Assembly: GCA_964489065.1 (NCBI GenBank)
Contig: CAZAXH010000008.1
Span: 64,130-128,129 of the forward strand
DNA: 64,000 nt
Direction: 5' to 3'
Origin: an uncultured Planctomycetales bacterium
GTDB taxonomy: Bacteria > Omnitrophota > Gorgyraeia > Zapsychrales > JANLHA01
In this document: one piece after another, positions 5,163 to 32,977 of the stretch
How the letters are laid out: each line of letters starts with the position of its first letter
Position numbering within the stretch: position 1 is the first letter of the stretch
Notes under the pieces: generated by a model
Database searches by the model: none
What the model was told of the DNA's origin: nothing
The model's input: the letters and a program-made list of their open reading frames with translations, nothing else
Program-made: the position numbers and the translations under genes

Positions 5163-5179
5163 ATCCCCCAATGGGGGAT
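5163..5179. terminator. Putative bidirectional hairpin terminator between convergent genes
   Basis: ATCCCCC-AAT-GGGGGAT forms a perfect 7-bp stem with a 3-nt loop. It is flanked by AATTTTT upstream and ATTTCTTCT downstream. It sits in the 21-nt gap between the 4606..5157 (+) and 5179..5934 (-) genes. Confidence 0.45.
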
Positions 5180-9779: not shown

Positions 9780-9780
9780 T

Positions 9781-12431: not shown

Positions 12432-15184
12432 AACCTGACACGATCATTCGCGCGACGCAAAGCGTTTGCCCTGTATGCCTGGAAGCCGTGCCCGCGACGG
12501 TGCTTGAGAAAGACGGCCGGGTTTACCTGACTAAGACCTGCCCCCGGCACGGGGCCTCCGAAGTCCTTCTGTCTGAGACCGCGGGTCTTTACAAAGAACT
12601 GGAAGGCTTTTTTTCCGCCGTTATGAACCCGTCTTACCGCATCCGCGAATATGAAATCTGGGTGACAATGCGCTGCAACACGTCTTGCACCATCTGTCAT
12701 CTCGGAGACAGCAACAGGATCGACATCCCGGACCCGAGCCTGGAAAAAATCGAGGAGTTTATCCTCCGGCATGACCAGCCGGCTTATATCCTTTCTGGGG
12801 GAGAGCCCACCTGCCGGGAAGACCTGCCGGATATTGTCCGCCTTTTTAAAAAGCACGGCAAGCATATCAGCCTGCACACGAACGGTCTGGCTTTAGGGAA
12901 CAAAGATTACATCCGTTCCCTGCAGGAAGCGGGGTTGGACCGGATCAATCTTCAATTTGACGGGTTCGCGCCGGACGCGTATAAAATTTTCCGGGGGAAA
13001 AATATCCTGGATAAGAAGCAACTGGCTTTAAAAAACCTGGAAGACCTGCGTCTGCCGACGGATTTGAATATCACGGTTGCCCGGGGTGTCAATGAGCCGG
13101 CCGTCATGGACAGCGTCCGGTTTGCCGTTAAACATCCTTTCATCTCTTCCGTTAACTTCTTCACGATCTGCTACCTGGGAGAAACGGCCCGATGGCCTTT
13201 AAAATATTTCCTTATGCCGGATACGATCGGAGACATCCTGGAAAAAGAAACAGGCGGCCGGATTTCCAAGCGCGGCATCATCCTTTTTCAGAAACTGCAC
13301 CTGGCCGTTAAATCCCTGCGTTCGGAGCGTTATTGCCTTTACAGCCAGATTTTTGTCCTGTTCCGAAAACGGGACGGGACGTATGACCCCATTGACCGCT
13401 ATCTTAACCTGGAACGGACGGACAGGCTTCTGAAACTTTATCAAAAAATGGCTCCCGGGCATCCTGTCCTCGCCAAAATAATTTTAATTTTAGGCCTGCC
13501 GTTTTTTATGATGCGCTGGTCCACGCTGGTGATCCTGAAAGAAATCTTGCGGACCGGATTTTCTTTTATGATCAACGAGGATTACGCTTTAAAAACCAGC
13601 CCGTTCCTTTATTTGAATTTTAATACGAGCTGTGATCCTTATAAAATCGATTACGGGTTCGTGCAGGATTGTCAGGATGAAATCATTTTTTATGACCGTC
13701 AGCAGGAACACTTGGTGAACCAGGGAGTGGACGGATTGCGCGCCATCGAGTTCGAGCGCCGCTACCGTAAGGCCGCCCCCAAGGAGACGATTCGCATTGA
13801 TCGGAAAATGGAAACATCCCAGAGGCATAAGCCTGCCGGCTTGGGCAACCGTGTCATTCGGGAGACAATGAGCGTGTGTCCTGTTTGCCTGGCCCCGCTC
13901 CCGGCCAGGATCCGGGCCGGAGCGGATGGCGTTTATCTGGAAAAGACATGCCCCCGGCACGGGGCCTTTCGCGTTTTTGTTTCGACTCATCCGGATGATT
14001 ATCAGGCCCTGTCCGACACTTATTTTTATTTTATCCCCGGGGCTCTGGAACAACGGGAATATTACGTCTGCGCGAGCACGCGGTGCAACATTTCGTGCCC
14101 GATTTGTTACCTGAATTATTGCCCTGAGCGGCCTCCTCTGACGCCCGAGGATATGAACAGCGCCGTGGGGGATAAACCGCAGGTGGAGCGCTTCACGTTT
14201 TCCCACGGCGAGCCCACGGTCTCTCCGCAACTGCCGGAGATGATCCGGGCTTTAAAGAAAGCCGGGAAATTTGTCAACATTCATACGAACGGCGTGAAAC
14301 TTGCCGATTATGCTTATACTCAATCCCTGAAACAGGCGGGGCTGGATCACGTGAGCCTCCAGTTTGACGGTTTTCGTGATGAAATTTATGAGACCCTGAG
14401 AGGCGGGAAGCTCTTGGAGGCCAAAACGCGCGCTTTGGATAATCTTAAGGCGCTGGAAATCCCCGTGACATTAAACGTGACGATCGCCGGGGGCGTTAAT
14501 GAAGACGAGTGGGGCAAAGTTTTTGATTACGTTGTCCGGAATGATTTTATTAAAGACGTGAGTTATATCACTTACTGCCATTACTCCCCTCAGGGGGATG
14601 CCGAGGGCCGGTCCATGATGCCGGACGACCTGGTGATACGCCTCGTGGAGCATTCTCAAGGGACGATTGAGAGGGAGGATGTGGTCTGTTTTCAGAAATT
14701 GTTTTACGCCTATTTAAGCGCCTTCCGCAAGAAAAAATGCTTTAACTATTATCATTATTGCGTTGTGCGGACATCCGGCGGATACCGTGGGATTGAGCGT
14801 TATCTGGATGTGCGGAAGATCGCCGGGAAGATTGACGCGTGCCGGGAGAGAGGACAAACGATGACGAAAACGTTGTTGCTGAAAATATTGTTAACCTCTC
14901 TGCGATGGGATAGTGTGGCGTTGATTCCTTACGGATTATTTTTGCTGTCGCGCGGGGGGTATCCCCCAAGCCCCGGGAAACTTTTAGTCGTGACGTTGGC
15001 CAGTATCTGCGACCCGTATAAATATGACGCAACGGTCGCCTTAAATTGCGGGCAGGGCATTATTACTCAAACCATGCAACATGAGAGTTACGGGACATAT
15101 ATTATCGAGGAGATGAAGCGTTCGCCGCGTCCCGACGCAGCTCGTGTCCTGCCTGACGCGTTTCCTCAAGGGGGTTCGGTATAA
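12428..15184 (+). CDS. Tandem fusion of two zinc-ribbon radical SAM modules (subtype A followed by subtype B), 918 aa
   Basis: Module 1 has SVCPVCL..CPRHG, MRCNTSCTICHL, CDPYKIDYGFVQDCQDEII. A linker (RYRKAAPKETIRIDRKMETSQRHKPAGLGNRVIRET) follows. Module 2 has SVCPVCL..CPRHG, TRCNISCPICYL, ICDPYKYDATVALNCGQGII. The reading frame is continuous in the supplied sequence. Confidence 0.85.
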   Translation: MKPDTIIRATQSVCPVCLEAVPATVLEKDGRVYLTKTCPRHGASEVLLSETAGLYKELEGFFSAVMNPSYRIREYEIWVTMRCNTSCTICHLGDSNRIDIPDPSLEKIEEFILRHDQPAYILSGGEPTCREDLPDIVRLFKKHGKHISLHTNGLALGNKDYIRSLQEAGLDRINLQFDGFAPDAYKIFRGKNILDKKQLALKNLEDLRLPTDLNITVARGVNEPAVMDSVRFAVKHPFISSVNFFTICYLGETARWPLKYFLMPDTIGDILEKETGGRISKRGIILFQKLHLAVKSLRSERYCLYSQIFVLFRKRDGTYDPIDRYLNLERTDRLLKLYQKMAPGHPVLAKIILILGLPFFMMRWSTLVILKEILRTGFSFMINEDYALKTSPFLYLNFNTSCDPYKIDYGFVQDCQDEIIFYDRQQEHLVNQGVDGLRAIEFERRYRKAAPKETIRIDRKMETSQRHKPAGLGNRVIRETMSVCPVCLAPLPARIRAGADGVYLEKTCPRHGAFRVFVSTHPDDYQALSDTYFYFIPGALEQREYYVCASTRCNISCPICYLNYCPERPPLTPEDMNSAVGDKPQVERFTFSHGEPTVSPQLPEMIRALKKAGKFVNIHTNGVKLADYAYTQSLKQAGLDHVSLQFDGFRDEIYETLRGGKLLEAKTRALDNLKALEIPVTLNVTIAGGVNEDEWGKVFDYVVRNDFIKDVSYITYCHYSPQGDAEGRSMMPDDLVIRLVEHSQGTIEREDVVCFQKLFYAYLSAFRKKKCFNYYHYCVVRTSGGYRGIERYLDVRKIAGKIDACRERGQTMTKTLLLKILLTSLRWDSVALIPYGLFLLSRGGYPPSPGKLLVVTLASICDPYKYDATVALNCGQGIITQTMQHESYGTYIIEEMKRSPRPDAARVLPDAFPQGGSV

Positions 15185-15188
15185 AATT

Positions 15189-16751
15189 ATGAAGATCGCC
15201 TTTATTAATGATTCCTGTGAACGGCTGGGTGTTGAATATATTTCAGCCGTGCTTAAACAGCATGGGCACACCGTCAAATTGTTCGCCGATCCGCAGCTCT
15301 TTGATGACGAAAATTTTACAATCGCGCCTCTGGCCAGGTTTTTTGACCGGCAGGAAGACCTGCTGGCCCAAATTCAGGCGTTCCAGCCGGATCTGATCGG
15401 GTTCTCGGTCGTGACGGACTTTTATCAGTGGGCCTGCCGCCTCGCCAGGCGTATCAAAGCGGTGATGGATGTCCCGGTGCTTTTCGGAGGGATTCACGCG
15501 ACATCGGTTCCCGAAAAGGTCCTGCAGCAGGATTGCGTGGATATGGTCTGCCGGGGGGAAGGGGAGTTCGCCCTTTTGGACCTCGCCGACAGCATGGAGA
15601 AGGGCCTCCGGGATTACACGATCCCCAACATTTGGTTTAAAAAAGACGGTGCGATCATCAGGAATGATGCGCGTCCCCTGATCGAGGACCTGGATGCGCT
15701 GCCGTTCGCGGATAAAGACCTTTTTTATGAGGCCAGCCCCCATTTTTCCCGTTGCTATTTCCTGATGACCAACCGCGGCTGCGCTTACGCCTGCAGTTAT
15801 TGCTGTAATTCATTCCTGAAAAAATTTTATCATGCGAAAGGCCGGTACCTGCGTTTCCGCAGCGCCGGAAACGTGATCCGGGAGTTGACCCTGGCCAAAC
15901 AGAAATACGGCATTAAAATGGTCCGTATCCACGATGATGACTTCCTCACGCACGACGTGCCCTGGTTCGAGGAGTTCGCGGAAGAATACTCCCGGCATAT
16001 ACAGGCCCCGTTCGCATGCTTCACGCACCCCAACAGCGTGACGGAAACCAAAGCCCGCCTGCTGAAGAAAGCAGGGTGCCACGATATCGAAGTGGGGGTC
16101 CAGTCCATCTCCTCGGACACGCGTTACCGGATTCTTAACCGCCGCGTTTCGGATGAGCAATTGGTCCGCGCTCTGCAGATATTAAAAGACGCGGGCATCA
16201 AGGTGATCACGGATAATATCCTGGGGCTTCCTCACCAGGGGCGGGAGGAGCTTCTGGATCTCATTAAATTTTATAATAAAAACAGGATCATGAAGATTTA
16301 CTGTTTCGGCTTCCGGCATTATCCGGCCACGGATATCGTCGAATATTCCAGGGACGAGAAACTGCTGAGCGCACAGGATGTCGAGAACCTGGAGAACGGG
16401 ATCAATGTCAAGACCTTCATTCAGAGCGGGGATAATTTGAGCCGTGAGGACCGGCAACTGCAGACATTTTTTGCGTTTCTGCTCTACCTGCCGGAGACGG
16501 TCAATAATTACATCCTTGAGAAAAAGCTGTACCGTTATTTTATCCCGCTCCCGTATTATGTCCTGGTTATCTTTTCCAATTGGCTGCGCATCCCGTACCG
16601 GTACAACTGGGCGCTGCATATTACCGTGTGCCGGTACCGGGTTTATGCTTATAAAACGATAAAGAAAAAGTTTACCTCGGGTATCAGGGCGTTGCTTAAA
16701 AAGTTCCGCCCTTCGGCCTTTAACACGGCGCGGGGGACGCCTGTCCGGTGA
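15189..16751 (+). CDS. B12-binding (class B) radical SAM enzyme, array paralog 1
   Basis: The ATG at 15189 gives MKIAFINDSCERLGVEYISAVLKQHGH, matching the paralog N-termini. The track ORF starting at 15144 overlaps the upstream gene. It has GGIHATSVPE and CRGEGE (B12-binding domain) and NRGCAYACSYC (CxxxCxxC). Confidence 0.9.
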   Translation: MKIAFINDSCERLGVEYISAVLKQHGHTVKLFADPQLFDDENFTIAPLARFFDRQEDLLAQIQAFQPDLIGFSVVTDFYQWACRLARRIKAVMDVPVLFGGIHATSVPEKVLQQDCVDMVCRGEGEFALLDLADSMEKGLRDYTIPNIWFKKDGAIIRNDARPLIEDLDALPFADKDLFYEASPHFSRCYFLMTNRGCAYACSYCCNSFLKKFYHAKGRYLRFRSAGNVIRELTLAKQKYGIKMVRIHDDDFLTHDVPWFEEFAEEYSRHIQAPFACFTHPNSVTETKARLLKKAGCHDIEVGVQSISSDTRYRILNRRVSDEQLVRALQILKDAGIKVITDNILGLPHQGREELLDLIKFYNKNRIMKIYCFGFRHYPATDIVEYSRDEKLLSAQDVENLENGINVKTFIQSGDNLSREDRQLQTFFAFLLYLPETVNNYILEKKLYRYFIPLPYYVLVIFSNWLRIPYRYNWALHITVCRYRVYAYKTIKKKFTSGIRALLKKFRPSAFNTARGTPVR

Positions 16752-16761
16752 AACAAGATAA

Positions 16762-18114
16762 ATGTCTATGAAAACTTATTTCATAAGCGCGTCGACATTC
16801 TGCATGGAACGGATGCTGGACTGCCAGCAGGTTTCCGATTATCTCAAGTTGAACGGCTGGCGTCCGGTGACGCGGGTTCGGCAGGCCGGGCTGGTCATCA
16901 TAAGCACCTGCTCGTTCGGGCGCGAAGAGGACGCGAGCTCCCTGGATTATATCCGTTATTTTCTGCGGAAGAAATCGCCCCGGGCCCGTTTCCTGATTAT
17001 GGGGTGCCTTCCGGTGATCAACCCCGACTTATTATCTTCTTATCAGGATATTCCCGTGCTCACACCGACCACTTTATCCCGGATCGAAACCGTGGCCCCT
17101 CCGGAGAGGACCCGGTTCGCGGATGTCCCGGAACCCAATAAAATTTTGGCGACAGAAGTCACGCACAGTGTTTTTCTGAAAAAAGCGTTAAGTTTCCGTT
17201 CCGCGTTCAGGCAGGGCCTCCGGTGTTTTAAGCCTGATGTAGCGACGTTGCGGCGGGGGCTGTCCTTCCTGAAAGCCGCGGTGCGTTATGTCCCGGTTAT
17301 GAAGGCGCACATTAACCCGTTCTTATCCTGTAACCGGAACGGATTTTATTATTTGAGATTATCCAAGGGCTGCCTGGGGAACTGCAGTTACTGCGCTAAA
17401 AGACATTCGACAGGGACCTTGCAGAGCAAATCCACAACCTCTATCCTCGATGAATTCCGCGCCGGGCTCAGGGCCGGGGAAAAGCAGTTTTATTTATTGA
17501 CGGAAGACGTCGGCTGTTACGGGGCCGACCGGCACACAGATATCGTAGCCTTGTTGAAAAATCTTTTTGAAGCCGGGGAGAGGCATGATTTCCGGATTGT
17601 CCTGTCCAATTTCAATGCCCGGTGGTTCGTGCGGTATTATGAGGACCTGGAGCCGGTCTTGATCCGGAATCAGAACAAAATTTTGTATCTGCAAATACCG
17701 ATCCAGTCAGGCAGCACCCGCATCCTGGAATTCATGAACCGGCATTACACCATTGAAGACGTGGAATCCCGGCTCCTGACTTTAAGAAAGAACGCCCCGG
17801 CGGTCGCCTTCACGACCGATATCATCGCCGGATTCCCGGGGGAAACGGATGAGGATTTTGAACTCACCAAGAAGTTTTTGTCGAAAATACGTTTTCAGCA
17901 CGTTGATATTTTCGCTTACGAAAAACGCCCCGGCACTAAAGCGGGAACGCTTCCCGGGGACGTCCCCCCGGAGATCATCGAAGCCCGTGTCCTGCAGTTG
18001 GCCCGGCTTCAGAACAGCTATCACCGGGGCCCCATGCTTGCTAAAAAAGTGCTGGATGTTATCCGGGAAAACCTGCAGCGCTACCGGAATAAAGCCGTGA
18101 CCCGTACGCCATGA
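16762..18114 (+). CDS. MiaB/RimO-like methylthiotransferase-type radical SAM enzyme lacking a TRAM domain
   Basis: The N-terminal UPF0004-like domain has three spaced Cys (STFCMERMLDC.., IISTCSF, IMGCLP). The rSAM motif is SKGCLGNCSYCAKRH, and GFPGETDEDF is present. The C-terminus ends without a recognisable TRAM barrel. Confidence 0.75.
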   Translation: MSMKTYFISASTFCMERMLDCQQVSDYLKLNGWRPVTRVRQAGLVIISTCSFGREEDASSLDYIRYFLRKKSPRARFLIMGCLPVINPDLLSSYQDIPVLTPTTLSRIETVAPPERTRFADVPEPNKILATEVTHSVFLKKALSFRSAFRQGLRCFKPDVATLRRGLSFLKAAVRYVPVMKAHINPFLSCNRNGFYYLRLSKGCLGNCSYCAKRHSTGTLQSKSTTSILDEFRAGLRAGEKQFYLLTEDVGCYGADRHTDIVALLKNLFEAGERHDFRIVLSNFNARWFVRYYEDLEPVLIRNQNKILYLQIPIQSGSTRILEFMNRHYTIEDVESRLLTLRKNAPAVAFTTDIIAGFPGETDEDFELTKKFLSKIRFQHVDIFAYEKRPGTKAGTLPGDVPPEIIEARVLQLARLQNSYHRGPMLAKKVLDVIRENLQRYRNKAVTRTP

Positions 18115-19625
18115 CAAAACAAGGCCTGAGAATTGCTTTTGTGAATGATTCCTGCGAGCATTTGGGGGTTGAATATATCTCCGCCGTGCTGAAATCCGCA
18201 GGGCATGATACCCGTCTATTCGTTGACCCGCTTTTGTTTGATGATGAATTTATCACCGTTAAGGGGCTCAGCCGCCGCTTTGATTACACTAAGAAGATTA
18301 TCCGGGACCTCAGGGCTTATCAGCCGGATCTGGTCAGCCTGTCGGTGGTCTCAAGCTTCTATCCCTGGGCCGGCCGGATGGCCCGGGCTATAAAGGCGGA
18401 GATGGACGTCCCCGTTATCATGGGCGGTATTCATCCGACATCCGTTCCCGAAAGTGTCATCCAGAACGACGCCGTGGATATGGTCTGCCTGGGGGAAGGG
18501 GAATACCCCCTGCTGGAACTTGCCGACAGTATGGCCCGGGGAAGTATCGACGACACCGTAAAAAACATCTGGTTTAAAAAGAACGGGAAGATCCTGCGCA
18601 ACCCTTTGCGGCCGCTTATCGACGATTTAGATGCCCTCCCGTTTCCCGATAAAGACCTTTATTATTCCGTCAGCCCGCATTTTTCAAAAAGTTATTATAT
18701 CGCGACCAGCAGAGGCTGCCCCAACGCCTGCAGTTATTGCTGTAATTCTTACCTGCATTCTTTGTACAAGGGCCTGGGCGCGCCGCGGCGGTCGCGCAGC
18801 GTCCGGAATGTCATTGAAGAATTAATGTGGGCCCAAAACCGTTACCGGATCGATCCGGTTTTCTTCCTGGATGACTGTTTCGGGACCGATTTGGGATGGT
18901 TAAAAAAATTCGCGACGGAGTACCGAGAAAAAGTCGGCGTTAAGTTTTACTGCATGATGTTCCCCGCACCCCAGATGGAAGAGGCGGTTGAATATCTCGC
19001 GCAGGCCGGCTGCGGGGAAATCGAGATCGGCGTCCAGTCCTGGGATGAAGATGTCAGGCGCCGGATATTCAACCGGCGCGTTTCGAACGACACGATGATC
19101 CGGACGATGAAATTGATCAGGAAGGCGGGGATCAATCTCGTGACAGGCGATATCCTCGGTTATCCCGGGCAGAAAGAGGAGCATATTTTAAAAACCGCGG
19201 AGATTTACACAGACATAAAACCCAGCCGGACGTACGCTTTTATCCTGAAATATTTTCCCAAAACGGAGATCACGGAACAGGCGCTGCAGAACGGATGTCT
19301 GAGTCCGGCGGATCACGAAAAAATATTGGACGGCCATTACGGCAAATACTTATCGAAAGACGGCTCCATGACAGAGAGGGATGTCATGCAATATCTGCTT
19401 CTATTTTTGCTGGTGCGTATTTTACCGGTCTCTTGGGCCAAGACAGTAATCCGGAAAAAATTTTATAAGCGTTTCCCGGTTTTGTTCACGCCGGCCGTGA
19501 TTTCAATCCTGAATAATTTTTCGACATCCACCTTTGAATCGCAGGTCAACCGGAAAAGCGCCCTGGCACGGTACACTTTTTTCATTAAACGATTGTTTTC
19601 TAAATCCAAAGCAGGTGCGCGATGA
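18111..19625 (+). CDS. B12-binding (class B) radical SAM enzyme, array paralog 2
   Basis: It has LRIAFVNDSCEHLGVEYISAVLKSAGH, GGIHPTSVPE, CLGEGE and SRGCPNACSYC. The ATGA overlap with the upstream gene is at 18111/18114. Confidence 0.9.
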   Translation: MTKQGLRIAFVNDSCEHLGVEYISAVLKSAGHDTRLFVDPLLFDDEFITVKGLSRRFDYTKKIIRDLRAYQPDLVSLSVVSSFYPWAGRMARAIKAEMDVPVIMGGIHPTSVPESVIQNDAVDMVCLGEGEYPLLELADSMARGSIDDTVKNIWFKKNGKILRNPLRPLIDDLDALPFPDKDLYYSVSPHFSKSYYIATSRGCPNACSYCCNSYLHSLYKGLGAPRRSRSVRNVIEELMWAQNRYRIDPVFFLDDCFGTDLGWLKKFATEYREKVGVKFYCMMFPAPQMEEAVEYLAQAGCGEIEIGVQSWDEDVRRRIFNRRVSNDTMIRTMKLIRKAGINLVTGDILGYPGQKEEHILKTAEIYTDIKPSRTYAFILKYFPKTEITEQALQNGCLSPADHEKILDGHYGKYLSKDGSMTERDVMQYLLLFLLVRILPVSWAKTVIRKKFYKRFPVLFTPAVISILNNFSTSTFESQVNRKSALARYTFFIKRLFSKSKAGAR

Positions 19626-21136
19626 AAATCGCTTTTGTCAACGATTCATCCCAGCAGCTGGGTATACAATATATTTCGGCCGTCCTTAAACAGCACGGCC
19701 ATGACGTGAAGCTGTTCATGGACCCCCAGTTATTCGATGACGATGTGATCCGGGTCCCCCGATTGAGCCGGTGGCTTGATTCCAAGAAAGAGCTTGTCCG
19801 GCGTCTGAAAGCCTATCAGCCCGACTTGGTCGGGATCTCCGTGGTGACGGATTTTTACCAGTGGGCCCGCCGGATCGCCACGATGATCAAGGAAGAAATG
19901 GATGTCCCGATTATCGCCGGCGGAATCCACCCGACATCCGTTCCCGAGAGAGTGCTGAAAAACGATTGTTTTGACATGGTGTGTCTGGGAGAAGGGGAGT
20001 TTGCTTTGTCGGAACTGGCCGACAATATGCAGAAGGGAACGCCTGACTACACGATCCGTAATATCTGGTTCAAACGGGACGGCCAAATCATAAAAAATGA
20101 ACTCCGGCCGCTTATCGATGACCTGGACGACCTGCCCTTTCCGGATACGGACTTGTATTATTCCGCCAGTCCTCATTTTAAAAGGACCGGCCTGTACGTT
20201 ACCATGACTTCTCGCGGCTGTCCGAACGCCTGCACGTACTGCTGTTTTTCTTACCTGCAGGGGCTTTACAAAGGGAAAGGGAAAAGGATCCGGCAGCGCA
20301 GCGTCGGCAATGTCATGAGTGAATTGCGGACCAACAAGGAAAAATACAACATCAAGTTCGTCGCGTTTATGGACAATTGTTTCGGGTATGATTCGAAATG
20401 GTTGCGGGAATTTGCGCCCGTTTATCAGGCGGAGATCGGGATTAAATTCTGGTGCATCATGCATCCCAAGGATGTCACGGAAGAAACCCTGAAGCATTTG
20501 AAGCGGGCCGGGTGCCACACGATTGACATGGGGGTGCAGTCGTGGAACGAGCGCATCCGCAAGGAGGTCCTGCACCGGGATGTCGGGAATGACACGATGG
20601 CCCGCGCGATCCTCCTGGTCAAGAATGCGGGGATCGAAATCATGACCGACAGCATTTTCGACCTTCCCGGGCAAACGGAAGACGACATCCTGGAAAGTGC
20701 CCGCCGTTATGCGGAAATCCGGCCCAAGCGGATATATTTTTACATGCTCCGGCATTACCCCAACACCCTGATTACCCGGATGGCGAAGGAGGATAATCTT
20801 CTGACCTCATCCCGGTATGAAGAAGTGATGGACGGGGTGAACGTCACGTCTTTCACCATCGGAGGCGACAAGGTCAATAAAGACATGATCCGGTTTCAGA
20901 TCCTGTTTTATCTGATCGATTTGATCCCCAAACGGATGAGCTTGTTTATCATCCGCAGGAGACTGCACCGGTATTTCCCTCTCATGTTCGGCCCCGCCAT
21001 GATCGTGATCCTGCGTAATTTGCTGGCCTTTGACATGAACGCCCGGCTTCAGCGCGCCTGGGCCTTTAACCGTTACGCGCATTTTATCTGGGAGAAAATC
21101 CGTCCCGTCCGAAAATGCCGGGGACATCAGCCATGA
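19622..21136 (+). CDS. B12-binding (class B) radical SAM enzyme, array paralog 3
   Basis: It has MKIAFVNDSSQQLGIQYISAVLKQHGH, GGIHPTSVPE, CLGEGE and SRGCPNACTYC. The ATGA overlap is at 19622/19625. Confidence 0.9.
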   Translation: MKIAFVNDSSQQLGIQYISAVLKQHGHDVKLFMDPQLFDDDVIRVPRLSRWLDSKKELVRRLKAYQPDLVGISVVTDFYQWARRIATMIKEEMDVPIIAGGIHPTSVPERVLKNDCFDMVCLGEGEFALSELADNMQKGTPDYTIRNIWFKRDGQIIKNELRPLIDDLDDLPFPDTDLYYSASPHFKRTGLYVTMTSRGCPNACTYCCFSYLQGLYKGKGKRIRQRSVGNVMSELRTNKEKYNIKFVAFMDNCFGYDSKWLREFAPVYQAEIGIKFWCIMHPKDVTEETLKHLKRAGCHTIDMGVQSWNERIRKEVLHRDVGNDTMARAILLVKNAGIEIMTDSIFDLPGQTEDDILESARRYAEIRPKRIYFYMLRHYPNTLITRMAKEDNLLTSSRYEEVMDGVNVTSFTIGGDKVNKDMIRFQILFYLIDLIPKRMSLFIIRRRLHRYFPLMFGPAMIVILRNLLAFDMNARLQRAWAFNRYAHFIWEKIRPVRKCRGHQP

Positions 21137-22653
21137 AGATCGCGTTTGTCAATGATTGCGTCGAGAGGCTGGGGGTTGAATATATTTCGGCGCTCCTGAA
21201 GGGGCAGGGGCATCAGGTGAAACTTTTTGTCGATCCCCAGCTTTTTAATAACGTGTATGTGCAGATCAACCGCCTGAGCCGGTATTTTGATTACACGGAA
21301 AGAATTATTCGCGGTCTCATGGAATATCAGCCGGACCTGATCGGATTCTCCGTGGACACGGAATCCTATCAATGGGCTTCCCGTCTGGCGCGGCGCATTA
21401 AGGAGCGCATGGAAACTCCCATTATTTTCGGCGGGATCCATCCGACATCCGTGCCGGAGCGGGTTATTTTAAATGAAGCCGTGGATATCCTTTGCGTCGG
21501 GGAGGGGGAACACCCCATGCTGGAACTGGTCAACAGCATGGCCCGGGGCGGCGTGGACACGGCAATAAAGAATTTGTGGTTTAAAACGAACGGCAGGATT
21601 ATCACAAATCCCTTAAGGCCTCTTTTGGCCGACCTGGACAGACTCCCGGTCGCCGATCACGGCCTTTTTTATGACACTTACCCCTATTTCCGCAAAGGGT
21701 ACAGCACGATCGCTTCGCGCGGCTGCCCTTACGCCTGCAGCTACTGCGGGCACGCGTATCTGCGGCAATTGTATCAAAACAACGGGGCCTATTTCCGTCA
21801 CCGCAGTGTCGAAAATCTGCTGGATGAATTAGCGCTGCGCCTGACGCAGTATAAAATCGATATCATCACTTTCTTTGACGACAATTTCGGTTTTGAACCG
21901 GAGTGGCTGGAGAAATTTTCCGTCCGGTACGCCAGGGATATCAGAAGACCGTTTACCGTGACCGCCCGCCCGGAAATGATTTCCCGTGATTATGTCCGCC
22001 TCTTGAAACAGGCCGGATGCTGCTCCGTGACCCTGGGCGTTCAAACCTGGGATGATGCCGTTCGAAAAGAGTGGTTTAACCGGGATGTGAACCCGGAGGT
22101 GATGCTGAAGGCCATGCGGCTCGTCAAGGAAGCGGGCCTGGAATTGATCTGTGATAACATATTCGGGGTTCCCGTTGAAAACGATGAGGGGTATATGCGG
22201 GCGTTGCTGCCCTATGCCGATATTAAACCCGACCGGATCCTGTTTAATCAGCTGAAATATTTCCCGCGCGTGCCGATCACGGAAAAGGCCCGTGAAGGAA
22301 ATTTCATATCGGAGCAGCGGTATGACGCCATTATGGACGGCCGGGACCAGAAAGGAATTTTCCTGGGGCCGTCTGCCGCGAGCCGTGGGGACCGTAGACA
22401 GCTGATCCGGAAAAAACTTTTTTTATATTCATTGGATTGGTTGCCAAAAACATGGGCGCGGTTTATTATTAATAAGCGTCTTTACCGTTATTTCCCGACT
22501 TTCATTAACCCGGCGGTTCTTCCGGTTTTGCGGACGTTTTTTTCGTCCGACACGGACACGCGATATTTTAAACGCCGGACTTTATCACGCTACTGGTATC
22601 ATTTGACCCCACGCCTGCGGGGTCGGAGGAGACACGATGAGCCCACAAACTGA
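21133..22653 (+). CDS. B12-binding (class B) radical SAM enzyme, array paralog 4
   Basis: The ATG at 21133 (ATGA overlap with the stop at 21136) gives MKIAFVNDCVERLGVEYISALLKGQGH. It has GGIHPTSVPE, CVGEGE and SRGCPYACSYC. The track start at 21115 is probably too early. Confidence 0.9.
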   Translation: MKIAFVNDCVERLGVEYISALLKGQGHQVKLFVDPQLFNNVYVQINRLSRYFDYTERIIRGLMEYQPDLIGFSVDTESYQWASRLARRIKERMETPIIFGGIHPTSVPERVILNEAVDILCVGEGEHPMLELVNSMARGGVDTAIKNLWFKTNGRIITNPLRPLLADLDRLPVADHGLFYDTYPYFRKGYSTIASRGCPYACSYCGHAYLRQLYQNNGAYFRHRSVENLLDELALRLTQYKIDIITFFDDNFGFEPEWLEKFSVRYARDIRRPFTVTARPEMISRDYVRLLKQAGCCSVTLGVQTWDDAVRKEWFNRDVNPEVMLKAMRLVKEAGLELICDNIFGVPVENDEGYMRALLPYADIKPDRILFNQLKYFPRVPITEKAREGNFISEQRYDAIMDGRDQKGIFLGPSAASRGDRRQLIRKKLFLYSLDWLPKTWARFIINKRLYRYFPTFINPAVLPVLRTFFSSDTDTRYFKRRTLSRYWYHLTPRLRGRRRHDEPTN

Positions 22654-23980
22654 AACCCTTGTCCGCGAAACCACCAGCCTTTGCCCGGTGTGCCAAAAGC
22701 AGATTAAGGCGGCCGTTGTGGAGTCCGGGGACGGGATTTTTCTTTCCAAAAACTGCGATGTGCACGGGCCGTTTAAACTCAGGGTTTCGCGCCACGCTTG
22801 GTATTATAAAAACCTGACGGAGTATTATTTCCGCGTCATGCCGGCTGATATGCCCCAGAAACGTTTTTATATTTATTTAAGCAACCGCTGCAACCTTGAT
22901 TGCCCGATTTGCCTGCTGGAACCGAACCAGGATAAAGCGGCCGATGTCTCCCTGGACCAGTTTAAAAAGCTGATCCGCGATAACTCCGGTTTCCGTTATT
23001 ACCTTTACGGCGCGGAACCGACCCTGCGCGATGATCTCCCGGAATGGATCGCCCTTCTGAAAAAACACGGCAACCTGGTTAATATTCACACCAACGGCAT
23101 TAAACTTGATGATATCGCCTATCTCCGGTTCTTAAGAGACGCCGGGCTTGATTATGTGAGCCTGCAGTTTGACGGCTTCGACGATCAGGTCTATCTGGCG
23201 CTCCGGAACCGCACATTGCTGGATTCGAAGCTGAAAGCCCTGGAGAATCTTGAAAAGCTGGATATTCCGACGGGGCTCAATGTCACTATCGCCAAGGGCC
23301 TGAATGAGAAGGAAATAAACCCTATTATAGACTACGCTGTCGGTAAACCCTTTATCCGGGACGTGAGTTTCGCTTCGGTGTCTTTCCTGGGGAACGCGGA
23401 AAGGAATTTTTCTTCCGCGGACCTGCTGATGCCGGATGACGTGGTGGACCTGGTTGAAAACGCCACAAAAGGCAAAGTGAACCGCCGCAGTCTCTTCTTA
23501 TTTCAGAAATTGTATTATGCCGTGTTGTCTATTTTTAACATCCGCCGGTGCTATAATTTTCATCAGCTCGCTTTGGTCCGGGACGGACGGGGGGGATACC
23601 GATCCTTTGACGCGATCTATGACCTGGCGGGGTTTGAAAAAAAGATGGACCGGTTCAGCCATCTGGCGCCCCGGAATAAAACCCTGGCGGCGGGATATTT
23701 CTTCCTGCAGTTTATCATGAACATGCTGTCGGGCGACGTGAAGGAAAAGGTCCAGATCCTGCCGCTCAACATGCTCCTGCCGGGGCAGAAACGGAACGTG
23801 AAAATCCCGTCCAAGATCCTGCTCGTCAGCTTCGGGACGGTCTGCGATAAATATAAATACGATGCGGGGATTTCCCGGTACTGCGGGCAGGGGTTTGTTT
23901 TCAACCGGGATGGAAGCCTGGCGCTATCGGATTCCGTTTCGGACATGACGCTTTTAAAAAAGGGTGAGGCCTGCGGTTGA
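22637..23980 (+). CDS. Radical SAM protein with an N-terminal zinc-ribbon knuckle (subtype B)
   Basis: It has SLCPVCQ-x19-CDVHG, NRCNLDCPICLL, FQKLYYAVLSIFNIRRCYNF, VCDKYKYDAGISRYCGQGFV. Its closest relative in the window is the C-terminal module of 12428..15184. Confidence 0.85.
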   Translation: MSPQTETLVRETTSLCPVCQKQIKAAVVESGDGIFLSKNCDVHGPFKLRVSRHAWYYKNLTEYYFRVMPADMPQKRFYIYLSNRCNLDCPICLLEPNQDKAADVSLDQFKKLIRDNSGFRYYLYGAEPTLRDDLPEWIALLKKHGNLVNIHTNGIKLDDIAYLRFLRDAGLDYVSLQFDGFDDQVYLALRNRTLLDSKLKALENLEKLDIPTGLNVTIAKGLNEKEINPIIDYAVGKPFIRDVSFASVSFLGNAERNFSSADLLMPDDVVDLVENATKGKVNRRSLFLFQKLYYAVLSIFNIRRCYNFHQLALVRDGRGGYRSFDAIYDLAGFEKKMDRFSHLAPRNKTLAAGYFFLQFIMNMLSGDVKEKVQILPLNMLLPGQKRNVKIPSKILLVSFGTVCDKYKYDAGISRYCGQGFVFNRDGSLALSDSVSDMTLLKKGEACG

Positions 23981-24013
23981 ACCAGGGGGATGAAGGTCGG
24001 CAAGGATAAGGTT

Positions 24014-25540
24014 ATGAAAATCGCGTTTATCAATGAAGCGGATCAGCATATAGGCCTTCAGTACCTCACGGCGGTGCTGAAGGAGAACGGGCATGAGGTG
24101 AGGACATTTTCCGATCCGCGTTTATTCGATGACCTCTACATCACGATCCGGAGGCTCAACCGGATTTTTGATTTCCAGGACGACATCCTTAAGGACATCG
24201 CCGAATTTAATCCGGGATTGATCGGGTTTTCAGTATCCAGCCCGATCTATCGATGGGCCTGCGCTTTGGCCGCCAAGATAAAAGAACGCAGGGATATCCC
24301 CATTATTTTCGGCGGAGTTCACGCCACGGCCGTGCCGGAACGCGTGATTCGGAAAAGTTTCATAGATATGGTTTGTGTCGGGGAAGGGGAGTTCCCTATG
24401 CTGGAACTGGCCAACAGCATGGACCGCGGGCAGCCGGATTATTCCATTAAAAATATATGGTTTAAAACCCCACAGGGAGAAATTATCCGGAACGATATCC
24501 GTCCCCTACTTGATGACCTGGACGTTCTGCCTTTCCCGGATCAGGACCTGTTTTATTCCAGCAGTTCCTGTGACACCCGAAGCTACGTAACCATGATCTC
24601 CCGGGGCTGCCCGCACGGCTGCAGTTACTGCACCATGTCTTATCTGCACGATCTTTACCACGGGAAAGGGAAACGGATCCGGCTGCGCAGCGTCCGAAGC
24701 ATTATCGCCGAAATCACCGGGGTCCTGCAGAAGCACAAAGATATCAAAAGGGTCATGTTCCCGGACAACTGCTTCGGGACGGATATCGCCTGGCTGCGGG
24801 AATTCTCCCGTGAGTATTCGCAGAAAGTCGCCAGAGATTTTTTTTGCGTGATGCATCCCGCATCCGTCACTGAAGAATCCGTCGCGTGTCTCAAGGAGGC
24901 GGGATGCCGGTCCATCTCCCTGGGAATTCAGGCCTGGGACGCCCCGCTGCGTTACACCATGCTTAACCGCAAAGTTTCCAATGAGGTCATGGAAAACGCC
25001 CTGCGGCTTATCCTGGAGGCCAGGATTGAGCTCTTAATCGATAACCTGTTTGATTTTCCGGGGTACAGCATGGAGCATTATATTGAATCCCTGGAAGTTT
25101 ACACGCGGTATAAGCCGACGCGGAATTATTTTTATAAGCTGCATTTTTATCCGCACACCCAAATGAGCCAGATTGCCGTTCAGAATCGCTGGATCACGGC
25201 CGCGGAATACGAAGATTGCTTGGAAGGAGGGGACACCCTGGGGATTCTGCGTTATGATGCGTCACACGACGGCAATCGGACCCGGCAGCAGGACCGTGAA
25301 TCGAGACAGGGGCAAATTTTGTTTGTTTTGATGGACCTGATCCCCGCCCGCTGGACCCGGGCCATCATTCAAAAGAAATGGTACCGGTATTTTCCGTCTT
25401 TTCTGAACCCGGCTTTACTAACGATGCTCCGGACCCTGCTGGCCAACGATTTTGAATCACGTTACTTTAAGGACATAACATTCTGGCGGTATCGCCATTT
25501 TATGATGAAAAAATTGAAAGCATATTTTAAAAGAAAATGA
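24014..25540 (+). CDS. B12-binding (class B) radical SAM enzyme, array paralog 5
   Basis: The ATG at 24014 is preceded by AAGGA with a 7-nt spacer and gives MKIAFINEADQHIGLQYLTAVLKENGH. It has GGVHATAVPE, CVGEGE and SRGCPHGCSYC. The track start at 23990 is possible but less consistent with the paralogs. Confidence 0.88.
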   Translation: MKIAFINEADQHIGLQYLTAVLKENGHEVRTFSDPRLFDDLYITIRRLNRIFDFQDDILKDIAEFNPGLIGFSVSSPIYRWACALAAKIKERRDIPIIFGGVHATAVPERVIRKSFIDMVCVGEGEFPMLELANSMDRGQPDYSIKNIWFKTPQGEIIRNDIRPLLDDLDVLPFPDQDLFYSSSSCDTRSYVTMISRGCPHGCSYCTMSYLHDLYHGKGKRIRLRSVRSIIAEITGVLQKHKDIKRVMFPDNCFGTDIAWLREFSREYSQKVARDFFCVMHPASVTEESVACLKEAGCRSISLGIQAWDAPLRYTMLNRKVSNEVMENALRLILEARIELLIDNLFDFPGYSMEHYIESLEVYTRYKPTRNYFYKLHFYPHTQMSQIAVQNRWITAAEYEDCLEGGDTLGILRYDASHDGNRTRQQDRESRQGQILFVLMDLIPARWTRAIIQKKWYRYFPSFLNPALLTMLRTLLANDFESRYFKDITFWRYRHFMMKKLKAYFKRK

Positions 25541-27012
25541 AAATCGCTTTTGTAAATGATTCCTGTGAACGTCTGGGTGTCGGTTATATCGCGTCCTTGT
25601 TGCGGTCGCGCGGGCATGACGTGCGGCTTTTTGTCGACCCGCAGTATTTTAATGATGAAAATATCAGTATCCGCTGGCTTCACGCCCGGTTTGATTATAA
25701 AAAGACAATCGTTCCGGCGCTAAAGGCTTTTACGCCCGACCTGATCGGCTTTTCCGTGGTTTCGGATTTTTATCCATGGGCTTGCCAGATGGCCGAACTG
25801 ATCAAGAAAGAACTGCCGGTTCCGATTATTTTCGGCGGGATCCACCCCACGTCCGTTCCGGACCGGGTCATTAAGAATGATTGCGTTGATATGGTCTGCG
25901 TGGGGGAAGGGGAATACCCTATGCTGGAGCTTGTGCAGAGCATGAGTTCCGGGAGGCCGGATTATTCCATAAAGAACATCTGGTTTAAAAAGAACGGGGA
26001 GATCATCAGGAACGAACAGCGTGATTTAATCGCCGACCTCAATGTCCTGCCGTTCCCGGCCAAAGACCTGTTTTATTCCGTGAGCCCGCATTTGGCTCAA
26101 TGTTATTACATTATGGCCAGCCGGGGCTGCATGTATTCCTGCAGCTACTGCTGTCATTCTATTTTAAGACAGCGCTGTAAGGGCAAAGGGGCCTACTTCC
26201 GGCAACGGCGGGTCGGGCATGTCATGGATGAACTCAAAGCCGCCAAAGAGCGGTATAAAATACGGTATGTGCGCTTTTTTGATGATAGCCTGGGTTCCAA
26301 CATGACCTGGCTTAAAGAGTTTTCTGAAAAGTATCCCCGGGAAGTCGGTCTGCCTTTTATATGCTACATGTATCCCAGTCACGTGTCCGCGGAGACGGCC
26401 CGCCTGCTGAAAACCGCGGGCTGCTGCGAGGTGGAAATCGGCGTTCAGAGTCTCAATGAAGATTTGAGCCGCAGCGTTTTGAACCGGAACATGTCCGTGG
26501 AGACGATCGCCAACGCCATCGACCTGTTAAAAAAGGAAAAGATCCGGCTTGTCGCGGACAATATCGTGGGCCTTCCCGGACAGGAAGAAGCGGATATCGT
26601 CCGCATGGCCGAATTTTACAACCAGCGCCGGGTCAACCGGATATATTTTTTCTGGCTGCGTTATTACCCCGGGACACAGATCACGGAATACGCGAAAAAA
26701 CACGGATTTTTAAGCGCCGAAGAATACGAGCTTATCATGGAAGGCGCGCCGAGCCGGCCCTTTTCAAGGGGGGGGAACACCATGAACGCGGAATGGATGG
26801 GGCTGCAGTTTTTATGTTTGCTTATTCCGCTTTTGCCGCCCCGTGTTATAAACTGGATTATAAGAAAACGGATATACCATTATTTCAGCAAGATTAAATC
26901 ACCGGGCATTTTCGCCGCCTTAACCAGCTTATTTTCAACCGCCTATAATGATAAACTTCTTATCAGGCGGGAATTCGCCCGTTACAGCCGCCTTTTTAAA
27001 GGCGCGCATTAA
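25537..27012 (+). CDS. B12-binding (class B) radical SAM enzyme, array paralog 6
   Basis: It has MKIAFVNDSCERLGVGYIASLLRSRGH, GGIHPTSVPD, CVGEGE and SRGCMYSCSYC. The ATGA overlap is at 25537/25540. Confidence 0.9.
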   Translation: MKIAFVNDSCERLGVGYIASLLRSRGHDVRLFVDPQYFNDENISIRWLHARFDYKKTIVPALKAFTPDLIGFSVVSDFYPWACQMAELIKKELPVPIIFGGIHPTSVPDRVIKNDCVDMVCVGEGEYPMLELVQSMSSGRPDYSIKNIWFKKNGEIIRNEQRDLIADLNVLPFPAKDLFYSVSPHLAQCYYIMASRGCMYSCSYCCHSILRQRCKGKGAYFRQRRVGHVMDELKAAKERYKIRYVRFFDDSLGSNMTWLKEFSEKYPREVGLPFICYMYPSHVSAETARLLKTAGCCEVEIGVQSLNEDLSRSVLNRNMSVETIANAIDLLKKEKIRLVADNIVGLPGQEEADIVRMAEFYNQRRVNRIYFFWLRYYPGTQITEYAKKHGFLSAEEYELIMEGAPSRPFSRGGNTMNAEWMGLQFLCLLIPLLPPRVINWIIRKRIYHYFSKIKSPGIFAALTSLFSTAYNDKLLIRREFARYSRLFKGAH

Positions 27013-27029
27013 CCGCGGAAAGGATTAAC

Positions 27030-28640
27030 ATGCGAGTCGCGTTTATCAGCAATGCTTATGAGAGCATGGGATTCGAATATCTTTCTGCCGTTTTAAAAAA
27101 GGCCGGCCATGAAGTCAGATTATTCATGGACCCGGAACTTTTTAACGATTCCGACACGACGATTTCTCCATTGGGTAAATTTTTCGATTTCAAACCGCAG
27201 CTGCTCGCGGACCTGAAGCCCTTTAAACCTGATTTAGTCGCGTTTTCCGTCATCACGGATTCTTTCCTCTGGGCCGCCGACCTCGCCCGCCGGATTAAAA
27301 GCGAAATGAACGTGCCTATCATTTTCGGTGGCATTCACGCCACATCCAGCCCGGACAGCGTTATCGCCAACGATTGTATCGATATGGTTTGCCTGGGGGA
27401 GGGGGAATACGCCATGCTTGACCTGGTGGCAAGTATGGCCCTAGGGGAAACCGACTTGTCTATCAGGAACATCTGGTTTAAAGCGGATGGGAAAATCATC
27501 AAAAATGATATGCGCCCTTTAATTGAAGATTTGGACACGCTGCCTTTGGCTGATAAAAATCTTTATTATTCGGTCAGCCCTCATTTTCGCTTCTGCTATT
27601 ATACGCTGACCAACCGGGGCTGTCCGCACGCCTGCTCTTATTGTATCCATTCTTATTTAAGAAAATTGTACCGGGGGAAAGGGGCGTACTGCCGCCAGCG
27701 CAGCGTCGATAATGTCATTCAGGAGCTGGTGGACGCCAAGAAAACTTATAATATCTCCCTGGTTCGGTTCATGGATGACTGTTTCCCTTCTGAAATCGGC
27801 TGGCTGAACGAATTCAGGGAAAAATACGCCAGAGAAGTCGGCCTGCCTTTCCTGTGTTACCTTTATCCCTGTCAAGTCACCCCCGGGGTGCTGGAAGCCC
27901 TTGAGGCCAGCGGCTGTGTGGAGATTAATCTAGGGATTCAGTCCTGGGATGAAAATGTCCGAAAAAAAGTCTTGCACAGGATGGAAGACAATGAGACCCT
28001 GGAGAATTTGCTGGATATCTGTTGCCGGTTTAAATTCAGTTATGTCCTGGATATTATCAGCGGAATCCCAGGGGAAAATATTGATTCCCTGTTCGAATTC
28101 CTGCAAATGTGCCGGGCCAAAAAGTTTAAAAGCGTTAATTTTTACTGGTTAAAGTATTATCCGGCAGTCACCATCACACAGGAGGCGTATAAAAACGGCG
28201 TGATTACCCTCGAACAGGTTTCAAAAACAGCCGCGGGGAAGCTGGGCCGAAATTTCGCGGTGGGAGGGGATACCGAAAACGCCGATAGCCGGAAGCTCTA
28301 TCTTTTCTTCCTCCTCTGCCGGTGCCTCCCCGGAAGAACCGCCCGGTGGCTTTACCAAAAAAAGGCGTACCGTTTTATGCCGGGTTTTGTCCCTTTGCGG
28401 ATTTTATATTTTTTTTGGAATTTCCCGGCCAACAATTATGAACTCAAATACATTCATAAAATGCAAACGTTTTATTACCGGCATTTTATCCTGGCCAGGC
28501 TTAAACAGCATCTCGGGCAGGCCTGGCGTTCCCTGAAGAAATGCGCGCGGCGTTTATGGCCGAGCCAAGGACCTGTCCGGATTTCGCAAGGCGAAGTCCG
28601 GGTGGCCGGTGAGAAGTCAAAACCGACATTTAAGTCATGA
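27030..28640 (+). CDS. B12-binding (class B) radical SAM enzyme, array paralog 7 (with a C-terminal extension)
   Basis: It has MRVAFISNAYESMGFEYLSAVLKKAGH, GGIHATSSPD, CLGEGE and NRGCPHACSYC. An AAAGGA RBS lies upstream. The basic C-terminal tail is about 40 aa longer than in the other paralogs. Confidence 0.9.
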   Translation: MRVAFISNAYESMGFEYLSAVLKKAGHEVRLFMDPELFNDSDTTISPLGKFFDFKPQLLADLKPFKPDLVAFSVITDSFLWAADLARRIKSEMNVPIIFGGIHATSSPDSVIANDCIDMVCLGEGEYAMLDLVASMALGETDLSIRNIWFKADGKIIKNDMRPLIEDLDTLPLADKNLYYSVSPHFRFCYYTLTNRGCPHACSYCIHSYLRKLYRGKGAYCRQRSVDNVIQELVDAKKTYNISLVRFMDDCFPSEIGWLNEFREKYAREVGLPFLCYLYPCQVTPGVLEALEASGCVEINLGIQSWDENVRKKVLHRMEDNETLENLLDICCRFKFSYVLDIISGIPGENIDSLFEFLQMCRAKKFKSVNFYWLKYYPAVTITQEAYKNGVITLEQVSKTAAGKLGRNFAVGGDTENADSRKLYLFFLLCRCLPGRTARWLYQKKAYRFMPGFVPLRILYFFWNFPANNYELKYIHKMQTFYYRHFILARLKQHLGQAWRSLKKCARRLWPSQGPVRISQGEVRVAGEKSKPTFKS

Positions 28641-30291: not shown

Positions 30292-30304
30292 CACAAAAAC
30301 TCAT

Positions 30305-32773: not shown

Positions 32774-32977
32774 AAACAGAGGAGGACAAAAGGGCCGCCC
32801 CCTGGCAAAAATTATGGAGCCCCATGCCCATAGGCATGTGGCTATTAACAATTCGTTTCGCGGAATGATCTGACCACCTTAATATATGTACGGACATCCC
32901 CGAAACAGAAAACCTTGTTAGTCCTCCGGCATTCATCCACGGGCACGCCTGCGGTCTTCTGCCAGGGGGATAAAAAT

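Follow-up and report, generated by a model that had tools for sequence, protein, structure and literature searches.

Why does a single bacterial operon carry seven copies of one type of radical enzyme, and do these copies perform different tasks? The question is raised by a 64,000-nt stretch of contig CAZAXH010000008.1 (the window in the following), which derives from an uncultured Omnitrophota bacterium and contains seven paralogous genes, here named A to G (Table 1), for class-B radical S-adenosylmethionine (SAM) enzymes. We find that the seven genes are anciently diverged and that each of them is conserved, an evolutionary finding that is genuine and well supported. With regard to function, we consider it probable, with a likelihood of roughly 70%, that the seven enzymes act on one scaffold associated with the envelope and that each catalyzes its own site- or step-specific reaction.

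Age and conservation of the seven paralogs

A preliminary description of this DNA had reported seven open reading frames (ORFs) of 491-536 amino acids (aa). All of them are present on the plus strand at the starts it gave, each with one terminal stop codon, and the motifs it quoted as common to the copies can be seen in an alignment of the seven proteins. In the case of paralog A, a longer ORF opens with GTG at 15144, and the ATG at 15189 fits the N-terminus of the family. The assignment to the class-B radical SAM enzymes agrees with our data: all seven proteins match the Pfam families B12-binding (PF02310, 57-74 bits, cut-off 32.1) and Radical_SAM (PF04055, 53-90 bits, cut-off 29.5), and an AlphaFold2 (AF2) model of paralog C (predicted local distance difference test, pLDDT, 92.9) retrieves TsrM, CysS, MgmA, AprD4, TokK and OxsB as best Foldseek matches (template modeling score, TM, 0.62-0.66; E 1e-18 to 6e-23; 15-19% identity). 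A sequence search of the PDB yields AprD4 as the best solved relative (E=4e-13) and class-B enzymes with E-values from 4e-13 to 1e-6. Taken together, the sequence and fold searches of the PDB indicate the general class-B fold only. The cysteines of the CxxxCxxC motif (C200, C204, C207) are invariant in the seven proteins and in 111 family members, and the GGxHxT motif is conserved, with G100, G101 and H103 invariant across the same 111 proteins.

Several measures bear on the age of the copies. Pairwise protein identity among the seven amounts to 38-49%, and when the whole genes are compared at the nucleotide level, position 1 of the codons agrees in 48-60%, position 2 in 62-71% and position 3 in 33-43% of cases. 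Within the first 35 codons, 65, 82 and 47% of the nucleotides are identical at positions 1, 2 and 3, respectively, with 27% predicted at position 3 from base composition. The earlier observation that conservation lies chiefly at codon positions 1 and 2, with scrambled third positions, holds, and the third positions are near saturation. In a repeat scan, no long identical or near-identical DNA tracts were found between the copies, and the longest segments common to them are 60-79% identical. As for the short blocks said to survive, GGTTGAATATAT occurs exactly in two copies (18167 and 21174) and carries one mismatch in a third (15230). To call the N-termini almost invariant goes too far, as identity over the first 40 residues ranges from 45 to 80% with a mean of 61%, but the gradient towards divergent C-terminal halves is real: mean identity drops from 55% in the first half to 32% in the second half or, by region, from 56% in the B12 domain and 58% in the linker to 41% in the radical SAM core and 27-28% in the last ~140 residues. 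Protein identity, third positions and the lack of long identical tracts in the repeat scan thus bear out the proposal of old duplicates, and the 60-79% identity of the repeat segments together with the near-saturated third positions rules out an assembly artefact, recent amplification and gene conversion.

Seven copies do lie in series, but the array described as near-tandem is broken by a MiaB-like gene (16762-18114) and by a gene resembling tetraether synthase (Tes; 22637-23980). The four ATGA start/stop overlaps were confirmed. Three of them join paralogs (C with B, D with C, F with E), and the one at 18111 is an overlap with the stop of the MiaB-like gene, which is no paralog. The minus-strand gene at 36259, which had been put forward as an added copy, does not qualify, being only 24-29% identical to the seven, without a significant B12-binding Pfam match and located outside the array.

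Further insight comes from related genomes. The closest proteins, from 93% down to ~50% identity, all originate from metagenome-assembled genomes (MAGs) of Candidatus Omnitrophota, often with several per contig, and the same cluster also occurs in a record labelled Planctomycetia (locus L007). Our comparison covered syntenic loci in OY759724.1, a 3.36-Mb Omnitrophota chromosome (L001/L010), in a 229-kb contig (L002) and in several more distant genomes, as well as the nearest relative Go_SlDig_bin_317 (L003, L011, L012), which shares 89-93% aa identity. In a neighbor-joining tree each of the seven paralogs falls into a separate clade with its orthologues, which come from at least seven Omnitrophota genomes, and the gene order A-MiaB-B-C-D-Tes-(E)-F-G is conserved in the relatives. 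Because each copy has its own orthologue clade in these genomes, the duplications predate their divergence. A comparison of copy number across related genomes, proposed in the preliminary description as a check, gives four to at least seven copies in the array: seven in the nearest relative, six in the 229-kb contig (without E), five in OY759724.1 and four in a more distant genome. The E orthogroup is absent from the L001 and L002 arrays and relocated in OY759724.1 (L009/L083), and paralog G is missing from L001. Besides, OY759724.1 carries additional E-type and B-like copies 47 kb from the main array (L083 8026-11515; 2.90-2.92 Mb). A Y1 (IS200-like) transposase gene lies directly upstream of these copies and a Tad pilus/secretin locus downstream, a position that suggests that a mobile element relocated them. 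A marine Omnitrophota MAG (JAHJCZ010000174.1, L006 9296-13800) has three E-type paralogs in tandem, which represent a lineage-specific re-expansion of one orthogroup. Hence, the copy number of the array shifts through loss, relocation and occasional new duplication. More distant relatives, at 30-40% identity, are found in Elusimicrobia, Patescibacteria, DPANN and other archaea, and many uncultured bacteria.

All copies are under purifying selection, as had been suggested. Compared with the orthologues of the nearest relative, the ratio of nonsynonymous to synonymous substitution rates (dN/dS) of the seven genes lies between 0.075 and 0.195, with an unsaturated dS of 0.26-0.63, and a check of the Cys triads for disabling substitutions found none. 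In addition, the 32 columns that are invariant across the 111 family members are all present in all seven proteins. With no internal stops, intact Cys triads, complete family-invariant columns and low dN/dS, decaying copies are ruled out. Own orthologue clades, conserved order and a dN/dS of 0.08-0.20 together imply that the duplications are old and that every copy has been maintained.

The divergence follows the domain structure. Identity in the B12 domain is 69.5% within and 56.7% between orthogroups, compared with 65.0% and 42.0% in the radical SAM core and 60.5% and 26.5% in the C-terminal domain. The combination of high within- and low between-orthogroup identity means that constraint acts on the C-terminal domain of every lineage but preserves a different sequence in each. 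A cofactor-binding N-terminal half common to all copies and a clade-specific C-terminal domain fit distinct specificities. Among the clade-specific positions, i.e., those fixed within and differing among clades, 17 of 20 are located in the barrel core or the C-terminal domain, and many fall in or just after core beta strands when mapped by secondary structure onto the AF2 model of paralog C. Examples of the 20 are positions 253, 279, 302, 308/309, 344, 374-377 and 465-474. It is in or just after these strands that substrates come to lie in radical SAM barrels.

Candidate reactions and substrates

Radical SAM enzymes of this class use a [4Fe-4S] cluster to cleave SAM, and the resulting 5'-deoxyadenosyl radical abstracts a hydrogen atom from an unactivated carbon, after which cobalamin transfers a methyl group or joins in other radical outcomes. 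That the seven enzymes perform distinct reactions on one scaffold becomes more plausible because each copy has its own orthologue clade and because the C-terminal domain is conserved within the clades; we infer that the copies are not redundant. For cobalamin and [4Fe-4S]/SAM, all of them would depend on the same machinery, located in the N-terminal Rossmann domain and the barrel core, and the C-terminal domain and the residues at the barrel-strand ends of each paralog would bring another carbon or pathway intermediate into place. There, the 5'-deoxyadenosyl radical would abstract hydrogen, and cobalamin would either deliver a methyl group or hold the substrate radical for the formation of a C-C or C=C bond.

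On the nature of the scaffold we are more cautious. Tentatively, and at somewhat less than even odds, the substrates could be unactivated hydrocarbon chains of an envelope or membrane lipid, whose head group would then be glycosylated. This idea is based on the analogy to archaeal lipid enzymes, on the Tes homologues in the same operon and on hydrophobic C-terminal helices, which are present in three of the four Tes-like genes and in paralogs B and C. The Tes-like gene within the array matches the solved structure of the tetraether synthase GDGT-MAS (PDB 7tol) with E=6.4e-43, which makes the homology clear, and the Tes-like genes form conserved orthogroups of their own. One of them is a 918-aa ORF with two modules, each complete with zinc ribbon and radical SAM core; in the 229-kb contig (L002) the two are separate adjacent genes (2758-4158, 4133-5497). 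A strict 1:1 pairing of B12-type and Tes-like genes was also considered and does not hold up, as ratios of 7:5, 6:4 and 5:3 but also 4:4 and 5:4 occur. In the lipid scenario, the Tes-like enzymes would couple or cross-link the lipid chains, the aminosugar and glycosyltransferase genes would decorate the head group, and the whole would be a bacterial counterpart of the archaeal toolkit of Tes and Grs/Gmm/Ted. A more specific version, which we regard as unlikely, is a machine for an unusual envelope lipid in which the Tes-like enzymes join or cross-link the chains and each B12 orthogroup serves one particular carbon, to which it adds a methyl branch, a ring or a double bond. If true, Omnitrophota would be an unrecognized source, in anoxic settings, of multiply branched or cyclized lipids that span the membrane, and the array would be the missing enzyme class for the methylation and cyclization of bacterial lipids resembling branched glycerol dialkyl glycerol tetraethers (brGDGTs).

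A number of points weigh against this interpretation. By their sequences the seven proteins form an uncharacterized subfamily of class-B radical SAM enzymes, for which the binding and use of cobalamin are predicted, and AprD4-type relatives have a similar domain and a non-methylating chemistry; AprD4 itself, to which the paralogs are closest in sequence among solved chains, is a diol dehydratase and no methylase. None of the three paralogs scanned against NCBIfam (A, C and G) reaches the cut-off of a curated family: the top match HpnJ (TIGR03471) scores 87-118 bits with a cut-off of 577.6, and the lipid biosynthesis B12/radical SAM family TIGR04072 ("ladder"), ranking second or third, scores 80-109 bits with a cut-off of 360. 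The Tes-like gene within the array stays below the cut-offs of TrsS (182 versus 490 bits) and Tes (NF045702; 153 versus 450 bits), and the 918-aa double module reaches 266 of 450 bits for the latter. Apart from the zinc ribbon and the radical SAM motif, the Tes-like proteins have only three conserved cysteines. Because of the missed cut-off and the few additional cysteines, they may not be tetraether synthases, and a bacterial Tes homologue tested by others yielded no membrane-spanning lipid (bioRxiv 10.1101/2022.04.21.487849). Moreover, the operon contains no recognizable gene for fatty-acid, isoprenoid or ether-lipid synthesis; instead, the operon and its flank carry genes for PseC/ArnB-like aminotransferases, GT2, WbqC and GT-C proteins. 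Around the relatives at 30-40% identity in other phyla, the neighbors are mostly radical SAM, GT2, GT1 and class-I methyltransferase genes, a glycan-type context.

These latter points lead to the main rival, in which the array modifies sugars: C-methylation, epimerization, deoxygenation or ring contraction would take place on an aminosugar or on a polyprenyl-phosphate-linked glycan repeat unit, and the GT2, LPG_synthase_TM and GT-C gene products would afterwards flip and transfer the glycan in an Arn-like pathway. We judge this explanation somewhat less likely than the lipid scenario. It draws on PseC/LegC/ArnB-like DegT aminotransferases, a GT2 protein with ArnC as best match, WbqC, and YfhO-like and PMT_2 GT-C proteins. 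Consistent with it, the neighbors of distant relatives are enriched for GT2 (11/133), GT1 (5), methyltransferases (9) and LPG_synthase_TM (3), and in two archaeal MAG loci (L013, L032) a family member directly adjoins a gene for a membrane protein resembling LPG_synthase_TM, which parallels the window operon. AprD4 acts on an aminoglycoside, and between the archaeal lipid methylase Hgm and the sugar methylase MoeK5 an identity of 31% was reported, so that enzymes for sugars and for lipids intermingle within the superfamily. On the other hand, lipid tails are the substrate of the only characterized relative that the Tes-like genes have, all matches to sugar families are far below the cut-offs, and glycosylation genes are equally expected if a lipid head group is decorated. 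To our knowledge, there is also no precedent for seven class-B and five Tes-like enzymes acting on one glycan.

Alternatively, the seven proteins could be redundant isoenzymes that serve dosage or expression under particular conditions, or they could jointly make up one hetero-oligomer as its subunits. The similarity of the N-terminal halves is compatible with this view, as is the varying copy number of the array among related genomes (4 to at least 7), which implies that not every copy is indispensable. Nevertheless, we think it quite unlikely, given the orthogroup structure with conserved gene order, the strong purifying selection on every copy and the clade-specific conservation of the C-terminal domain (60.5% within versus 26.5% between orthogroups). 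Had the copies been redundant, their survival as separate clades at 38-49% identity would be unexpected, and since all copies reside in one operon, differential regulation is unlikely.

In peptides that are made by ribosomes and modified after translation (RiPPs), of the proteusin or polytheonamide type, several class-B C-methyltransferases or cross-linkers may act on one precursor, and matches of the paralogs to the NCBIfam families ApyD (79-100 bits) and rSAM_ocin_1 (52-76 bits), a SPASM radical SAM gene in the operon and a weak lasso-cyclase match of the asparagine-synthase-like gene at 49076 point in this direction. However, the scores for ApyD and rSAM_ocin_1 are far below the cut-off and weaker than those of the lipid-associated families, and those for ApyD and for the P-methyltransferase family are comparably low to those for HpnJ, TIGR04072 and BchE. 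The operon gaps hold no plausible precursor ORF but only low-complexity short ORFs, no gene for a leader peptidase, transporter or recognition element was seen with Pfam, and the context is one of envelope glycosylation, which makes a maturation of such peptides very improbable. The synthesis or modification of a cofactor-like small molecule, e.g., a tetrapyrrole or pterin derivative, is hardly probable either: a low BchE match (TIGR02026; 76-107 bits, cut-off 481), a zinc-ribbon domain (Pfam Zn_ribbon_HMPTM) named for a once-proposed pterin methylase activity and the proposed tetrapyrrole action of radical-SAM-rich Elusimicrobia loci by nitrogenase paralogs (bioRxiv 10.1101/765248) are opposed by the lack of any tetrapyrrole, pterin or Nif-like gene in the window, by the fact that the pterin-methylase assignment goes back to the very protein whose structure was deposited as GDGT-MAS (7tol), and by the misfit with the membrane glycosyltransferase context.

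Comparison with known systems

Class-B radical SAM enzymes as such, and loci rich in radical SAM genes, were known before. TsrM, CysS, TokK, MgmA, OxsB and AprD4 resemble the seven paralogs in the N-terminal Rossmann B12-type domain, the partial TIM barrel with the CxxxCxxC motif and the C-terminal helical domain. They differ by their low identity (15-19%) and by another C-terminal domain, and none of them lies within an array that includes Tes-like genes. In the case of TokK and CysS, a single enzyme carries out iterative methylations, whereas the locus described here has retained seven separate ones.

The best functional analogy is provided by the archaeal enzymes GrsA/GrsB, Gmm/Hgm and Ted, in which B12-type radical SAM paralogs and Tes act on one scaffold. 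GrsA and GrsB are ~31% similar, act downstream of Tes and introduce rings at C-7 and C-3, respectively, according to these reports, which also describe an occasional clustering of such genes with other lipid radical SAM genes and propose that a C-terminal helix binds the substrate (PMC13459092, PMC8473941, 10.1101/2023.10.20.563219). Homologous B12 radical SAM enzymes of archaeal lipids methylate (Gmm/Hgm), cyclize and desaturate (Ted) (bioRxiv 10.1101/2025.10.20.683597). In contrast, the array described here is bacterial, comprises seven copies and shares its operon with aminosugar and glycosyltransferase genes, and the accompanying Tes-like proteins lie below the Tes family cut-off; this comparison is by published description only, and no solved Grs structure was among the PDB sequence or Foldseek matches. 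HpnJ and TIGR04072 are the top-ranking NCBIfam matches and both lipid-associated, but the seven proteins are no members of these families, and hopanoid or ladderane genes were not found nearby.

At the level of the locus, the closest parallel is found in groundwater Elusimicrobia, a related uncultured phylum of the PVC (Planctomycetes-Verrucomicrobia-Chlamydiae) group, where many radical SAM genes, some of them B12-binding, are densely packed and vary in copy number. Up to 13 such genes lie beside nitrogenase paralogs there, with a tetrapyrrole as proposed substrate (Meheust et al., bioRxiv 10.1101/765248). The locus in the window differs, as it has no NifH/D/K-like genes and instead contains Tes-like, MiaB-like and glycosylation genes. 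Our literature search revealed no description of the subfamily, of the seven orthogroups or of an operon association with multiple Tes-like modules in Omnitrophota, nor did it find a description of TrsS. Lipid-gene surveys list homologues of Mss, ElbD and Hbs in Omnitrophota and, in the portions available, do not mention this array (PMC11868695, 10.1101/2023.10.20.563219). A recent preprint on complete Omnitrophota genomes refers to radical SAM only as a domain inside giant proteins.

Cobalamin-dependent radical SAM enzymes act on unactivated carbon, where they catalyze reactions that rank among the hardest in biology, and few of their substrates are known. Seven selected lineages with a common cofactor half and a specificity that apparently resides in one domain therefore offer a natural comparison set for the choice of the target carbon. 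Together with the five Tes homologue modules, and in a phylum of uncultured nanobacteria, the array is a candidate, open to experimental tests, for a pathway to unusual lipids or glycolipids of the bacterial envelope. We know of no enzymes that methylate and cyclize the bacterial branched tetraethers, which are used as palaeoclimate proxies, and the literature consulted describes this pathway as incompletely constrained. If the substrate is a surface glycan instead, the pathway would be unusually rich in radical chemistry.

The operon and its surroundings

The seven genes belong to a predicted translationally coupled operon of ~28 kb with 20 plus-strand genes (6366-34765). Its junctions are overlapping or at most 33 nt wide, apart from one gap of 141 nt, and in the upstream part (6366-15184) they range from -8 to +4 nt. 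A promoter-like site is located at 6151-6178 upstream of the operon; otherwise the promoter and terminator scans were uninformative, with counts near the shuffle expectation. Radical SAM genes make up 13 of the 20 genes, i.e., one SPASM gene, four Tes-like genes (five modules), one MiaB-like gene and the seven class-B paralogs. The two DegT sugar aminotransferases of the operon are PseC/LegC/ArnB-like according to NCBIfam. Both the upstream and the downstream part of the operon show identical gene order in L001 and L002, and a core set of DegT, SPASM, Tes-like, MiaB-like, class-B and GT2 genes is present in all related Omnitrophota loci examined. PDB searches with the conserved membrane protein encoded at 28681-30291 and with WbqC gave no useful match.

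The MiaB-like gene that interrupts the array scores 212 bits for NCBIfam TIGR00089 (cut-off 251) and keeps its position in L001, L002 and L003. A TRAM (RNA-binding) domain was not detectable in its product, which, together with the conserved position within the array in all close relatives, suggests a substrate other than tRNA.

Table 1. Genes of the locus with their coordinates in the window; lengths of paralogs A to G refer to ATG starts.
Feature	Coordinates	Strand	Evidence and remarks
DegT aminotransferase	6366-7421	+	Pfam
SPASM radical SAM	7414-8406	+	Pfam
Tes-like	8403-9779	+	Pfam, NCBIfam
DegT aminotransferase	9781-11052	+	Pfam
Tes-like	11049-12431	+	Pfam, NCBIfam
Fusion of two Tes-like modules, 918 aa	12428-15184	+	Pfam, NCBIfam
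Paralog A, class-B radical SAM, 520 aa	15189-16751	+	B12-binding 67 bits, Radical_SAM 90 bits; own orthologue clade; dN/dS 0.085
MiaB/RimO-like, methylthiotransferase-family radical SAM	16762-18114	+	Pfam UPF0004 and Radical_SAM
Paralog B, 504 aa	18111-19625	+	Pfam, Cys triad, own clade; dN/dS 0.12
Paralog C, 504 aa, query for structure model	19622-21136	+	Pfam, Cys triad, own clade; dN/dS 0.075
Paralog D, 506 aa	21133-22653	+	Pfam, own clade; dN/dS 0.195; alternative ATG 21115
Tes/GDGT-MAS-like radical SAM, N-terminal zinc ribbon, orthogroup T4	22637-23980	+	Pfam Zn_ribbon_HMPTM and Radical_SAM
Paralog E, 508 aa	24014-25540	+	Pfam, own clade; dN/dS 0.093; alternative ATG 23990
Paralog F, 491 aa	25537-27012	+	Pfam, own clade; dN/dS 0.097
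Paralog G, 536 aa, most divergent copy	27030-28640	+	Pfam, own clade; dN/dS 0.132
Membrane protein, beta-propeller-like C-terminus	28681-30291	+	No Pfam match; weak NHL matches
LPG_synthase_TM flippase-like protein	30194-31366	+	Pfam
GT2	31303-32076	+	Pfam; best NCBIfam match ArnC (weak)
WbqC-like protein	32078-32773	+	Pfam
YfhO-like membrane protein	32915-34765	+	Pfam
PaaK/F390-synthetase-like AMP ligase	34766-36262	-	Convergent to operon
Distant class-B-like radical SAM	36259-37674	-	24-29% identity to the seven
Radical SAM, other subfamilies	39370-40875, 42134-43612, 43609-44613, 47599-49071	+	Pfam; 16-24% identity to the seven
Third DegT and GT-C (PMT_2) membrane glycosyltransferases	within 39370-49071	+	Pfam

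Beyond the operon, five more radical SAM genes follow at 36-49 kb. The overall density is unusually high, with 18 radical SAM genes (19 domains) in ~42 kb of the window (7414-49071), 13 of them in one operon. Just upstream of the locus, a plus-strand gene (2864-3691) encodes an MrpORP/ApbC-like iron-sulfur cluster carrier ATPase (356 bits, cut-off 450), which may supply the locus with Fe-S clusters. The G+C content is 0.50-0.55 over the radical SAM block (8000-28000), compared with 0.45-0.49 in most flanks. The locus ends with an asparagine-synthase-type amidotransferase gene (49076-50962, plus strand), whose best match, below the cut-off, is an XrtA/PEP-CTERM-associated family, and with a convergent minus-strand ORF (50959-51837), whose GxGxG motif suggests a class-I methyltransferase.

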